DNA of 59,849 nt from a virus (IMGVR_UViG_3300045988_094266); one strand, 5' to 3'; numbered from the stretch's first letter, positions 169 through 9,739 are shown. Notes: a model not told the origin generated them from the letters alone. Translations and numbers: made by a program.

Positions 169-558
169 ATGGCAGACAAAAGAAGAAGTCCTAATTAGCG
201 AACTATTAATCATATTCATAAGGAACCATGTGATACTAATAATATATATGCTAGGATTAATAAGGAAGCGTTATTTGCGGCCCGTAGAGAGTTGACAGAT
301 GGAGAGTTCTCTTTGTGGATATTTTTTGCTAGTCAATCTGAGAGGTTAACTGATTATGATTTTGGGCCTACTATTATAGAAAAAGAGCTTGGTATAAAGA
401 GAGCGAAATATACAAGTGCAGTAGATGGATTGGTAAAAAAGGGATATTTAGTTCCAGTTGAGAGAAAAGGATATTACGATTTTTACGAGATTCCTATTGA
501 TAGTGACGACGATAAATATAATTATATAGCTCCAGACGGAGAGAAATTTTCTTTTTAA
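169..558 (+). CDS. Replication-initiator-like winged-helix protein (RepA_N/DnaD-like) with an in-frame TAG at codon 10
   Basis: GGAGG lies 9 nt upstream of the ATG at 169. The frame runs through TAG 196-198 into the 292..558 track ORF. The C-terminal part looks like a winged helix (KELGIKRAKYTSAVDGLVKKGYL). The gene sits directly upstream of iteron-like repeats. Confidence 0.4.
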
Positions 559-560
559 TC

Positions 561-811
561 GTATTTCTGCAATACTATGAAAAAATTTCATGTATTTCTG
601 AGAATACTATGATTTCATCATATTGTGAAAAAGCTATGAAATTTTCATATATTTGTTGGAAAGCGATGAAATTAATTTCATAGTATTCTGATAATACTAT
701 GAAATTAATTGAAAAGGATTTTCATAGCTTTTTCACAATACCATGTCATAGTATTCTGACAATACCATGAAAGTAAATAAAAATCCATTTCATGGTATTC
801 TGACAATACAA
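561..811. repeat. Array of at least 5 copies of a 27-bp palindromic motif TTCATRGTATTCTGAYAATACYATGAA (iteron- or operator-like)
   Basis: Read directly in the sequence. Copies lie near 561-582, 587-612, 677-703, 745-771 and 788-811, with half-sites between them. Confidence 0.7.
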
Positions 812-903
812 CAAATATAACATATATTAGATAACAGAGTTAAGATAACAGTTGCGACTTTTTCATGTATTTGTGAAAAAGCGATGAGTAGGAGGATTAA
901 AGC

Positions 904-1077
904 ATGGAAGTATTTAAACCAATTAAGGTAGAAAATTATCAATTCATGAAAAATGGATTAAATTAGTATGAACCAGTATTGGTTTACTTTAAAGATGATG
1001 AAGAAGAAGGTAAGGTATATTTTGTAATCTTATGGAGAGAATAGAGGAGATTAATATGGCTACGAAGTAGCCATAAT
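904..1077 (+). CDS. Small ORF (57 codons) containing 2 in-frame TAG codons
   Basis: A strong RBS (AGGAGG, 8 nt spacing) precedes the ATG at 904. The frame is open to a TAA only if TAG is read through. Confidence 0.25.
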
Positions 1078-1080
1078 TAA

Positions 1081-1270
1081 GGAAGGTTTTAGAAATTTCG
1101 ATTTGAAAATTTTAAGAAGAAGGGATTTAGAATTTCAAATTAAAAAATAGGAGAGAAGAGAGAGAATAAGGATATAGGAAGAGAGAGATAGAGAGATCTA
1201 ATAAAGATGGATAGAGAAAGAAATAATAATAGAGTTTTAGTAAGAATAATAGAGAAAAAATAATAGAAAT
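1081..1270. repeat. Near-homopurine (GA-rich) tract of about 190 nt on the plus strand
   Basis: Read directly: long runs of A/G with only scattered pyrimidines. Confidence 0.8.
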
Positions 1271-1375
1271 TGATAAAATAGGGAAGAGAGGTGCCGATCG
1301 GGTCTAGGTACGAACCATCACAACACTCGTCACAACGATCGTAAACCTAGCCTTCCGCATTATAATATATATAAA

Positions 1376-1412
1376 AAAGGAGAGAAGCTACAATACTTCT
1401 CTCTCCTTTAAT
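1376..1412 (-). terminator. Rho-independent terminator for gene 1426..1881
   Basis: Hairpin AAGGAGAGAAG/CTTCTCTCCTT followed by a T-run on the minus strand. Confidence 0.55.
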
Positions 1413-1425
1413 CTTTTTCCTCTTG

Positions 1426-1881
1426 TTACTTTAAATGCTTCAAAAACTCCATAATACTATCTTCATCAGACTTAGTATTACCCTTAACCTGAGGCACACT
1501 CTTTGCGAGAGCATCAGAAATAGAGTCAACAGCAATGTCAATTACTTCATCAAGACTCTTTGCATTGACTACTCGAGCGGAAGTCTTAGCAGTTACAGTC
1601 ATAGCCTGCATAAACTGCTTAATATCATTTGCTGTCCACTTAGGATTGCTCTTGCTATAAACCAGCGCAGCTACACGACCAACGTCATCCTCAGTGAGAG
1701 ACAAATCATCAACATTGCCATAAAAAGTAGACTCAATCTCATCCAGAAGAATATCTCGTTCATGGTCTGCGGCGTTAGCCTCGGAGATTCTATTCATAGC
1801 ATCAGTAAATGCCTTTGCAATCTCCTCCTGAGTAGAACCATTCTGCATTGCATCACGAATCATAATCTCATAACTATTCAT
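1426..1881 (-). CDS. Hypothetical protein
   Basis: 151-codon ORF in standard code, followed by a terminator. Confidence 0.6.
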   Translation of the reverse strand: MNSYEIMIRDAMQNGSTQEEIAKAFTDAMNRISEANAADHERDILLDEIESTFYGNVDDLSLTEDDVGRVAALVYSKSNPKWTANDIKQFMQAMTVTAKTSARVVNAKSLDEVIDIAVDSISDALAKSVPQVKGNTKSDEDSIMEFLKHLK

Positions 1882-2126
1882 AATAAGTTCTTTTAGTTAG
1901 AAAAAGCGTTATGATGCTTCTTAAACTAAAATCCTCCTTTTCTTTATCTTATGTATATATTATATTATATTTTTTATATATTGTCGAACCGATCGGGTCT
2001 AGATAAAAAGATCGCTTTAACGGAATCCCGCGGAAAAGATTTTTCCTTTTCAAATAGTTAGCAACATCTTTACTATTGTTTGCTGTATCTTTAATGGTTT
2101 TAATTCTGTGAATATCAAGAAATTTT

Positions 2127-2190
2127 GAGAAAAACGAGGCATTTTTTGCTTATTTTTAAGTAAATTTGTTAGAAAAACGCGCATTTTTGC
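2127..2190. repeat. Two direct copies of GAAAAACG(A/C)G(G/C)CATTTTTGC
   Basis: Read directly. They lie in an AT-rich intergenic region that also holds a TTGTTAT/ATAACAA inverted repeat. Confidence 0.4.
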
Positions 2191-8291: not shown

Positions 8292-8295
8292 TTTT

Positions 8296-8327
8296 ATCTG
8301 CGGGAGTGCAAGATTTATAGTCTTGCA
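8296..8327. other. Strong hairpin GGGAGTGCAAGA/TCTTGCACTCCC next to the start of the AbrB/SpoVT gene
   Basis: A 12-bp perfect stem. There is no clear U-tract on the minus strand. Confidence 0.35.
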
Positions 8328-8343
8328 CTCCCTTCCTCCCTTC

Positions 8344-8736
8344 TTAATCCAGTTCTTTCAACATCCGTTCGAGGTCAGCTTTAGTACCACCCAACTCAAG
8401 CGTAAGAATAATTTCCGTTACGGCATTTTTCTCCCAGTCGCTAACTTCCCGCATGGCCTTTTTCTTCTCGTTCTCCATAGCGGGGTAAATACAATCCTGG
8501 CAAGCCTCTACCAGCCGGTCATTATATCTGCGGAAACTCATCCCCTTGTTTTTAACCTCCGAAAGAAGTTCGTCGTTAAGGGCTTTTACCGCCTGCTTAA
8601 CTTTCTCCTGCATGATTTTACACTCTGTCTCATAAGCGGAAAAGGTTTCATGGACAGCCTGCCTCTTGATTTCAGCCTTTACTCCAACTTCCTTTTCAAT
8701 ATACTCCCGAACAACCTTACTAACACGCATTTCCAA
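8344..8736 (-). CDS. Hypothetical protein
   Basis: 130-codon ORF. The start is probably the internal ATG at 8730, which has an AAGGAAG RBS. Confidence 0.55.
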   Translation of the reverse strand: MEMRVSKVVREYIEKEVGVKAEIKRQAVHETFSAYETECKIMQEKVKQAVKALNDELLSEVKNKGMSFRRYNDRLVEACQDCIYPAMENEKKKAMREVSDWEKNAVTEIILTLELGGTKADLERMLKELD

Positions 8737-8825
8737 AACTTCCTTTCTTAATTTTAATTTTTATTTATCGGGGTCGCCCCTTCCATGGTCTTATTGTACC
8801 ATAGTTGGGGCGATTTGTCAACCCC

Positions 8826-8978
8826 TTACATCAAAGTTTTTGCAAGATATGCGAACATTAAGATTTCCGCCGCAAACATGATTTCAAGTCCTATGCAATC
8901 TTTTTCAATAGCGGCTACAAATTGCCATACCAGACACAGAACAAAAGCAATCAGAATTATCATGGTAAAAGTTGTCAT
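8826..8978 (-). CDS. Small hydrophobic (membrane) protein
   Basis: MTTFTMIILIAFVLCLVWQFVAA... is largely hydrophobic. The RBS is weak. Confidence 0.3.
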   Translation of the reverse strand: MTTFTMIILIAFVLCLVWQFVAAIEKDCIGLEIMFAAEILMFAYLAKTLM

Positions 8979-8982
8979 ATAC

Positions 8983-9240
8983 TCACCCCGCAAAGGAAAC
9001 TTCCGCAAAGTTAATATTGAAACGCTCCCATTCGCTTTCCATGCCTAACATCATATCATGGAAAAGGTCATCACGATTTTTATATCCATCTTCTTCCAGA
9101 ATAGCCTCCCATTCTCCATCGTCATATTGATTTTCCAGATAATCCAACGCAGACTTGCGGGCGGCGATGGTATTAGACGCTACGCAGATAGGTTTATCGT
9201 CGTATCCGTCCGTGACCAAAATCATTTTCTTTTCTTCCAT
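8983..9240 (-). CDS. Hypothetical acidic protein
   Basis: AAAGGAAAG RBS upstream of the ATG at 9240. A TTGACT-17-TATATT promoter lies upstream. Confidence 0.45.
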   Translation of the reverse strand: MEEKKMILVTDGYDDKPICVASNTIAARKSALDYLENQYDDGEWEAILEEDGYKNRDDLFHDMMLGMESEWERFNINFAEVSFAG

Positions 9241-9294
9241 GATTTTTTCTTTCCTTTCTTTCGAGGTGTTTCTGTCTCCCTCTTTCTGATAATA

Positions 9295-9481
9295 ATATAC
9301 CATAGGCAAAGCAGAAAGTCAAGCGATTTTAGGAAAAAATCTTTCGTCAGATTGCACAACAATTCGAGCCTAAAATTGTGCAAATTGCCTCTTGATAAAA
9401 AATTCCGGCCGCGCCTGTGGTGCACGGCCGGGCGAACGAATAAAAAAAAAGAACCTCCTGAATTTCAGGAGGTCATTAATT
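9295..9481 (-). promoter_or_regulatory. Intergenic cassette copy 5
   Basis: Terminator CCTCCTGAA/TTCAGGAGG followed by a T9 run. GC hairpin CCGGCCG..CGGCCGG. Inverted repeat TTGCACAA..TTGTGCAA. Promoter TTGACT-17-TATATT. Confidence 0.55.
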
Positions 9482-9515
9482 TCTGCATACCAACAACTCC
9501 CTTTCTTTTGAGAAG

Positions 9516-9739
9516 TCAATCGGCATTTTCAACAATCTTTAATCCGTTTGCTTGGATAATTTTCATAGCTTCTTCAAGCGAGGAATCAACCGATCCGCAG
9601 TCAATACAGATATATTTTCTACCATCTTTTACCATAGTAGTAAAATAGTATTCCTAACCGGAAGTAAGTCCCATTTGTTCACGCAAGCGAATCGGAATCA
9701 TAATTCTACCACTTGAATCTAATTTGCGAGAGAAAGTAG
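9516..9739 (-). CDS. Small AbrB-like protein (about 74 aa) with an in-frame TAG at codon 32
   Basis: MQETTFSRKLDSSGRIMIPIRLREQMGLTSG, then TAG, then EYYFTTMVKDGRKYICIDCGSVDS... The two parts align along their whole length to B. subtilis AbrB. The TAG (plus-strand cta at 9653-9655) falls inside the DNA-binding domain. No clear RBS. Confidence 0.45.

Follow-up and report, generated by a model that had tools for sequence, protein, structure and literature searches.

A viral DNA of 59,849 nucleotides (IMGVR_UViG_3300045988_094266; this whole stretch is referred to as the window) raises the question why two genes in an otherwise largely TAG-free early region, one encoding a Rep-like winged-helix protein and the other a small AbrB-type regulator, should each be interrupted by an in-frame TAG near the N-terminus. 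An earlier note on this DNA had interpreted the two TAGs as a possible translational gate, by which the availability of a suppressor tRNA would serve as a developmental switch for specific regulators. The analysis reported here favours a different arrangement, to which we assign a probability of roughly 70%. As the best explanation, the window derives from a phage of roughly 100-160 kb, a distant relative of the human-gut phage phAss-1, that decodes TAG as glutamine and whose genes are partitioned gene by gene into a TAG-free and a TAG-bearing class. The two regulators would then belong to small TAG-bearing islets in which the number and position of TAGs reflect ordinary synonymous turnover, not a position-specific device.

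Throughout, the window and the contigs nearest to it are called lineage A, the sister contigs (~80% identity) lineage B, and a third group, with ~61% AbrB identity, lineage C; individual related loci carry numbers prefixed with L. The window has a GC content of 35%. Treating TAG as coding increased the content of open reading frames (ORFs), counted as stop-to-stop frames of ≥100 codons, from 10,785 to 24,977 codons, and restored long plus-strand genes between 16 and 54 kb, with up to 98 in-frame TAGs in one of them. Among the glutamine-type codons of the late plus-strand genes 281 of 581 are TAG (48%). When these genes were aligned with their lineage B counterparts, 21 of 94 aligned TAGs (22%) were found to be CAA or CAG in the sister lineage, and 17% of the late-gene CAA codons corresponded to TAG in lineage B. 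This alternation with CAA/CAG at the same codons, together with the placement of TAG on conserved glutamine positions, establishes at the level of sequence that TAG stands for glutamine. The window thereby displays the traits of a genome using genetic code 15, in that conserved genes broken by in-frame TAG become whole once TAG is read as sense, and the early genes can be read with the standard code and avoid TAG as terminator. The same code is used by phAss-1, a 136-kb human-gut phage that reads TAG as glutamine and carries three tRNA-Sup-CTA genes (PMC10607447). The capsid-like protein encoded at 24025..25077 (+) is 52% identical to its phAss-1 counterpart, and the early part of the window is syntenic with IMG/VR contigs of 98-164 kb.

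The Rep-like gene begins with an ATG at position 169, with GGAGGA upstream at 155-160, and both its extent (169..558) and its TAG at codon 10 agree with the earlier description upon inspection of sequence and translation. An exhaustive HMMER search identified 520 remote homologues. In an alignment of 40 Rep homologues, an N-terminal PNQ(K/R) motif shows ≥90% conservation of N9 and Q10, and TAG10 therefore encodes a conserved glutamine inside the domain. The window protein itself gives only a weak best match, to phrog_270 (E 0.26), but reaches known families through its homologues: 26 of the 40 match phrog_270, replication initiation protein (best E 1e-10), and others match phrog_428, phrog_678 and phrog_186 (DnaD-like). 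These iteron-type initiators with an upstream ribbon-helix-helix (RHH) gene resemble the present locus in the winged-helix N-domain, in the RHH gene found upstream in relatives and in the downstream repeats, whereas the window protein is a short 129-aa form. The family match via homologues and the repeats adjoining the gene make Rep a putative iteron-binding initiator. A single-sequence AlphaFold model was uninformative (predicted local distance difference test, pLDDT, of 43). TAG10 is conserved in L006/L007 as well as in L189/L190. In the lineage B protein (L006/L007) codon 56, CAA in the window, is a further TAG; codons 10, 56 and 90 are all TAG in a third Rep lineage (86% identity), and the homologue in L064, only 31% identical, likewise places a TAG at the PNQ glutamine. 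When IMG/VR was searched with a profile for more Rep loci, just two came up, and no Rep homologue was detected by tblastn in a collection of isolated phages that includes phAss-1.

TAG also occurs in the surroundings of Rep on the plus strand. The ORF upstream, of which the window holds the 3' part, is read in frame 3 and overlaps the start of Rep by 25 nt; three of its four glutamine codons are TAG, as is one of the two in Rep. Full-length homologues of this DUF5659-like protein (72 aa) in L189 and L007 contain 2-3 TAGs, and in relatives a CopG-like RHH gene, itself TAG-bearing in L189, lies upstream of this gene. The plus-strand island thus consists of an RHH / DUF5659-like / Rep / iteron module in which all genes tolerate TAG, the RHH gene lying just outside the window; TAG-free minus-strand genes adjoin the island on either side. 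The repeat array following Rep, a presumed origin or operator judging from its sequence, is also conserved in L006/L007; L067 has comparable repeats behind its Rep homologue. A further ORF at 904..1080 had been listed as 904..1077 with two TAGs; the TAGs are present and the Shine-Dalgarno (SD) sequence is strong, but relatives hold an unrelated, TAG-free 49-aa ORF at this position.

A secondary structure is also predicted at the start of Rep. On the plus strand a stem formed by AGTTCGCTA (144-152) and TAGCGAACT (196-204) encloses the SD sequence and start codon of Rep, and the 3' arm opens with the three bases of TAG10; within an inner stem, part of the SD sequence pairs with codons 7-8. The predicted free energy is -19.1 kcal/mol (z = -2.8), and the stems are kept in L189 although the loop differs. 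An RNA switch at the 100% conserved Rep start was considered and set aside, as the conservation is at least partly due to the overlapping upstream ORF, and the predicted stem is an unproven RNA element or operator.

The AbrB-like gene required a correction. The TAG at codon 32 is present, and so are all the peptide strings quoted earlier as well as the 31-aa fragment predicted in the absence of suppression; the proposed limit at 9739 is, however, 10 nt short and out of frame, the true ORF running from 9749 to 9516 on the minus strand. The protein matches phrog_4681 (E 7.6e-8) over residues 1-58, i.e. across the TAG, and its family profile matches AbrB-N of B. subtilis (PDB 1z0r; E 5.5e-5) over residues 1-32. 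Pfam PF04014 scores 21.5 bits, under the cut-off of 24.7 bits. A model of the monomer, of moderate confidence (pLDDT 66), found AbrB-N (1yfb) as its best PDB match, with a probability of 0.98, an E of 0.018 and 47 aligned columns. By this N-terminal DNA-binding domain the predicted protein belongs to the AbrB/SpoVT-AbrB superfamily, its first ~50 residues resembling the AbrB/SpoVT/MazE swapped-hairpin domain in both sequence and predicted fold. The alignment over the whole length of B. subtilis AbrB that had been claimed was not recovered: similarity is confined to the N-terminal domain, and the C-terminal part (ICIDCG...LEEAM..IQANG) is specific to this family and unlike the AbrB C-domain. 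In the isolated-phage collection the sole tblastn match to AbrB was marginal (E 8e-3, Moorella phage).

Could the TAGs nevertheless be true stops, the genes being pseudogenes, split genes or products of sequencing error, or translation starting downstream of the TAG? Beyond the presence of TAG in a standard-code reading nothing speaks for this. The same TAGs recur in independent assemblies, which removes the sequencing error envisaged in the earlier note, and the proteins are conserved on both sides of each TAG, which alternates with CAA/CAG at conserved glutamine positions. For Rep, the next in-frame start is a TTG at 292, the use of which would cost the conserved N-terminal 41 residues. We consider this explanation extremely improbable. 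The conserved form of both proteins needs TAG to be read as glutamine, and the dependence of Rep and AbrB on amber suppression, as originally proposed, is well supported by the comparison of homologues.

The two regulators stand out against the genes around them. The 26 minus-strand ORFs between 1426 and 14928 comprise 2968 codons, of which 87 are CAA/CAG and none is an internal TAG; their stops are 24 TAA, 2 TGA and a single TAG at 2702-2704. The ORF ending with the latter (2702..2947, minus strand) continues with GAT TAA (2696-2704), and would hence terminate whichever code applies, with no more than two additional residues. Orthologues of these early ORFs in seven related loci (L001-L007) are TAG-free too. 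The statement that most genes of the standard-code block lack TAG is consequently accurate, and the TAG-free zone reaches beyond position 12300, where the block had been taken to end. The tally of TAG-containing ORFs given with it was incomplete, since those at 9838..9954 (-) and 3..193 (+) are also TAG-bearing; more TAG-bearing genes are situated at 14301..14501 and 14835..15927.

A tRNA able to read UAG was located in relatives by means of a degenerate anticodon-loop/T-loop pattern, which retrieved contigs 091188 (lineage A) and 093451 (lineage B). In both, ARAGORN identified a tRNA(CUA) within a Ser-Sup-Leu-Cys cluster; it lies about 36-37 kb past AbrB on the strand of the early genes and has TAG-free ORFs on both sides. 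One copy of this tRNA occupies positions 1133-1208 of locus L080. Before this pattern search, scanning 20 related loci along their contigs, about 320 kb in total, had revealed no tRNA. As the tRNA(CUA) of the closest relatives resides among TAG-free genes, no full-length Rep or AbrB would therefore be made before the tRNA is available.

In combination, these observations suggest a genome divided gene by gene, where TAG-free genes would be translatable by the host immediately upon transcription, and TAG-bearing ones would yield full-length products only with tRNA(CUA) present. Two small TAG-bearing transcription units appear to lie inside the TAG-free early region, namely the plus-strand replication module and the minus-strand AbrB cassette, and both would be productively translated only after the suppressor has accumulated. 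Within them, as in other TAG-tolerant genes, TAG would be exchanged with CAA and CAG by ordinary synonymous turnover. The proposal of a single TAG gate in two regulators is not sustained in that form, the TAGs belonging to multi-gene islets with further TAG-bearing genes.

The distribution of the TAG within the AbrB gene illustrates this turnover. Codon 32 is TAG in the window and in two other loci, codon 25 in five loci and codon 40 in eleven; nine loci lack a TAG. In lineage B (L003-5; 88% protein identity) codon 32 is CAA and codon 25 is TAG, and in the window codon 25 is CAA. L013 and L029 encode an identical protein and differ solely in codon 25, CAG versus TAG. From the turnover rates of the late genes, a swap such as that between codons 25 and 32 is expected about 10% of the time. 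Islet genes of the window lineage use TAG for about one third to one half of their glutamine codons, similar to the late genes, with 2 of 7 in the cassette (38-aa ORF and AbrB). That TAG-free cassettes might simply come from non-recoding phages was ruled out for L024, L027 and L034 by the recoding of their late genes, TAG making up 14-23% of glutamine-type codons in large late-region ORFs. The pattern in AbrB thus fits drift among CAA, CAG and TAG in genes that would be translated with the suppressor present, and provides no positive support for a position-specific device. With respect to conservation of the TAG position, the check suggested along with the gate hypothesis gives a divided answer, as TAG10 of Rep is kept in relatives and the TAG of AbrB shifts or disappears.

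If a single early TAG were kept by selection in Rep and likewise in the AbrB cassette, host RNA polymerase would transcribe both from the start of infection, peptides of 9-31 aa would be released until the suppressor accumulates, and replication initiation as well as the transcriptional switch would be delayed. The retention of TAG10 in three Rep lineages at 81-86% identity, and in the distant L064, is consistent with such a gate, as are the strict avoidance of TAG in neighbouring genes, the host-type promoter on the cassette and the location of the first TAG at codon 9-11 in 8 of the 29 TAG-bearing genes of this phage, Rep included. Against it, the overlapping upstream ORF constrains the region of TAG10 so that its invariance is not independent evidence, the exchange between codons 25 and 32 lies within what late-gene turnover would produce, and TAG-free versions of the cassette occur both in near-identical phages (L013, L016, L020) and in the recoded relatives named above. 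An adaptive gate specific to these regulators is plausible but unproven, and on balance we regard it as unlikely; the hints for selection come from small, phylogenetically non-independent samples. Of the original switch hypothesis, the dependence on suppression and the avoidance of TAG in early genes are retained, and the position-specific gate is disfavoured, the movement of the TAG in AbrB matching the ordinary turnover of late genes.

Several points nonetheless weigh against the reading of partition and turnover. AbrB appears to have gained a TAG at least four separate times, invariably in the N-terminal DNA-binding half, the C-terminal glutamine codons always being CAA, and no homologue carries two TAGs, a pattern that also speaks for the gate and hints at constraint beyond pure drift. 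The window contains no tRNA gene anywhere, and the suppressor is known from close relatives only. Sigma-A-like promoters are found ahead of the TAG-free early units, where they are strong and in many cases have an extended -10, and also ahead of the AbrB cassette, the FolD operon and the late operons; promoter type does not separate temporal classes and offers no clue to when the cassette is transcribed. The order of events is one that we infer from codon content alone. A shared promoter type leaves room for translational control without demonstrating it.

The AbrB cassette displays a constant layout in 27 related loci, comprising a preceding terminator, the promoter, an SD sequence with a small ORF, a hairpin spacer, AbrB without an SD sequence, and two terminators. 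A structured leader RNA, considered for the nearly invariant ~260 nt upstream of AbrB, was resolved by these loci into promoter, 38-aa ORF and hairpin spacer; an Rfam search of the region was empty, and RNAalifold applied to close relatives gave no covariation. The amino-acid sequence of the 38-aa ORF is conserved through many synonymous changes. Lineages A and B carry its TAG at codon 19, whereas lineage C has it at codon 32, where two loci have TAA; several others lack the TAG. The spacer to AbrB spans about 95 nt and forms two hairpins, the second of which is maintained through G-U and compensatory changes among 10 diverse sequences.

This layout allows for an attenuator, in which the TAG of the small ORF reports the presence of the suppressor and ribosomes that reach the natural stop alter the folding of the hairpins, thereby letting transcription or translation continue into AbrB. 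The conserved sequence of elements (strong SD, 38-codon ORF, 12-15 nt, two hairpins), the covarying second hairpin with a T-run behind it and the AbrB ATG lacking an SD sequence would all suit such a device. The small ORF is, however, conserved as a protein, unlike typical leader peptides, its TAG shifts from codon 19 to codon 32 and is absent in L019, L024, L025 and L034 although the hairpins are kept, and no alternative anti-terminator pairing was found for the spacer hairpins. We judge this attenuator very improbable. A broader version is somewhat less so but still distinctly doubtful: the TAGs of the Rep operon and the cassette would be adaptively kept as a licensing circuit for the suppressor tRNA, with early transcription by the host, translation after the code switch, and read-through of the small ORF controlling the hairpin before the SD-less AbrB. 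If this were true, the cassette hairpin would serve as an attenuator responsive to which genetic code is operating.

In L009, L013, L014, L015, L016, L020 and L032 AbrB is intact, but a frameshift or a TAA at codon 32 disrupts the 38-aa ORF. This TAA is a single G-to-A change away from TAG, and the broken ORFs could be due to assembly error or real decay.

The partition described above is a clear example of a known genome organisation and not a new mechanism. Borges et al. proposed recoding as a post-transcriptional regulator that delays selected genes, such that expression begins with the standard-code genes, the code-switch machinery among them, and genes bearing TAG or TGA follow, and noted that replication genes are variably recoded (10.1101/2021.08.26.457843). 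With Mgcod, a block structure coinciding with strand switches was described, and in crAss-like phages the suppressor tRNA usually lay at the late strand's 5' end (10.1101/2022.06.29.495998). Like the published code-15 gut phages (Ivanova 2014; Yutin 2021; Borges et al.; Mgcod), the present phage combines TAG-rich structural genes with TAG-free ('dual-coded') early genes, avoids TAG as a stop and, in its close relatives, has the tRNA(CUA) among standard-code genes. It differs in that the published blocks are large, whereas here TAG islets of one to three genes occur as well, one of them on the strand of the TAG-free genes, and in that the suppressor tRNA of the closest relatives is located about 36 kb along the early strand and not at the 5' end of the late strand. 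In addition, several late genes that may be highly expressed are without TAG. Similarly, phAss-1 and the proposed Phassvirus group (PMC10607447) share with it human-gut siphovirus-like genomes of about 135 kb, TAG as glutamine and a tRNA-Sup-CTA within a tRNA cluster on the early strand, but phAss-1 is only a distant relative, with neither a Rep homologue nor an AbrB match by tblastn. The novelty is accordingly modest, and lies in very small TAG-bearing regulatory islets within the early region, of which one shares the strand of the TAG-free genes, and in the different position of the suppressor tRNA.

The locus does provide a clean case for the published, largely untested idea of recoding as a timer of protein production. 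It is suited to a test of timing because its TAG-dependent genes encode a regulator and an initiator instead of structural proteins, and because host-type promoters, TAG-free neighbours and the sequence of the suppressor tRNA from close relatives are all at hand. For annotation, code-15 genes can form islets of one to three genes on either strand of 'standard-code' blocks, which block-based code callers could miss. The features of the locus are compiled in Table 1.

Table 1. Features of the two TAG-bearing islets and of their surroundings (window coordinates)
Feature	Position	Strand	Remark
DUF5659-like ORF, 3' part	3..193	+	Runs off left window end; TAGs at 66-68, 105-107, 126-128
Rep-like winged-helix gene, 129 aa	169..558	+	TAG at 196-198 (codon 10)
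Iteron-like inverted and direct repeats (ATGAAA..TTTCAT, GTATTCTGAnAATAC)	559..900	.	Directly downstream of Rep; read from sequence
58-aa ORF, strong SD, two TAGs	904..1080	+	Status uncertain
TAG-free early genes	1426..9309	-	Context; includes SpoVT-like AbrB paralogue 7830..8291
Two intrinsic-terminator-like hairpins closing cassette	9405..9474	-	Downstream of AbrB
AbrB-type (SpoVT/AbrB swapped-hairpin) regulator, 77 aa, no SD	9516..9749	-	TAG at 9654-9656 (codon 32)
Second spacer hairpin, CGATTCC..GGAGTCG plus T-run	9791-9810 (spacer region 9786..9828)	-	Terminator- or attenuator-like
First spacer hairpin, CCGATT..AATCGG	9811-9828	-	Between small ORF and AbrB
38-aa Cys-rich ORF, MTLEVLKALAVILEFCLNqDSCKNCPMSQFCQKMPCEW	9838..9954	-	SD AAAGGAG; TAG at 9898-9900 (codon 19)
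Sigma-A-like promoter, TTGATT-17-TATAAT	9988..10016	-	Conserved in all 27 related loci
Terminator hairpin of preceding gene	10021-10037	-	Just ahead of cassette promoter
TAG-free early genes	10101..14257	-	Context; includes PTH2 peptidyl-tRNA hydrolase 13068..13505
66-aa Cys-rich ORF	14301..14501	-	TAG at codon 22 (14436-14438), kept in L001-L005
FolD-like gene (4 TAGs) and 106-aa ORF (6 TAGs)	14835..15927	-	Adjoin divergent promoter region

Two of the TAG-free early genes deserve mention. The second AbrB-family gene is SpoVT-like (PF04014 E 1e-11, plus SpoVT_C) and is situated 1.2 kb away from the TAG-bearing cassette; the phage may accordingly hold two AbrB-type regulators, one translatable at once and the other dependent on suppression. 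The PTH2-type peptidyl-tRNA hydrolase (Pfam E 1.4e-22) might, as a speculation, recycle peptidyl-tRNA freed at early UAG codons before suppression.

TAG usage in the remainder of the window shows further regularities. In the late block five plus-strand genes, the capsid-like gene among them, are without any TAG (23316-25675, 28826-30217, 31785-32324) while their neighbours contain 3-19, and whether a gene bears TAG is therefore more than a matter of late versus early. Over codons 2-17 of TAG-bearing genes TAG accounts for 19 of 27 glutamine-type codons, compared with 48% overall, and in less heavily recoded relatives no TAG is found within the first 30 codons. An A as the next base is commoner after TAG (37%) than after CAA/CAG (24%).

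Repeated elements were observed between early genes, at 6866-6892, 7752-7778 and 9405-9431 (minus strand), at 6776-6939 versus 7674-7829, and at 8770-8827. They consist of similar GC-rich 10-bp terminator hairpins adjoining strong TTGACA-17-TGnTATAAT promoters, and a 58-nt segment shares 93% identity with a part of phAss-1 that has no annotation.

Finally, the far end of the window contains a diversity-generating retroelement (55530-59514). Its reverse transcriptase (55530..56747, minus strand; Pfam RVT_1 E 3e-16) carries 3 TAGs, and the template repeat at 57054-57156 matches 57777-57879, the 3' end of the target gene 57763..59514 (-). All 21 mismatches between template and target fall on template plus-strand T, i.e. 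coding-strand A, which is the classic adenine-specific pattern.

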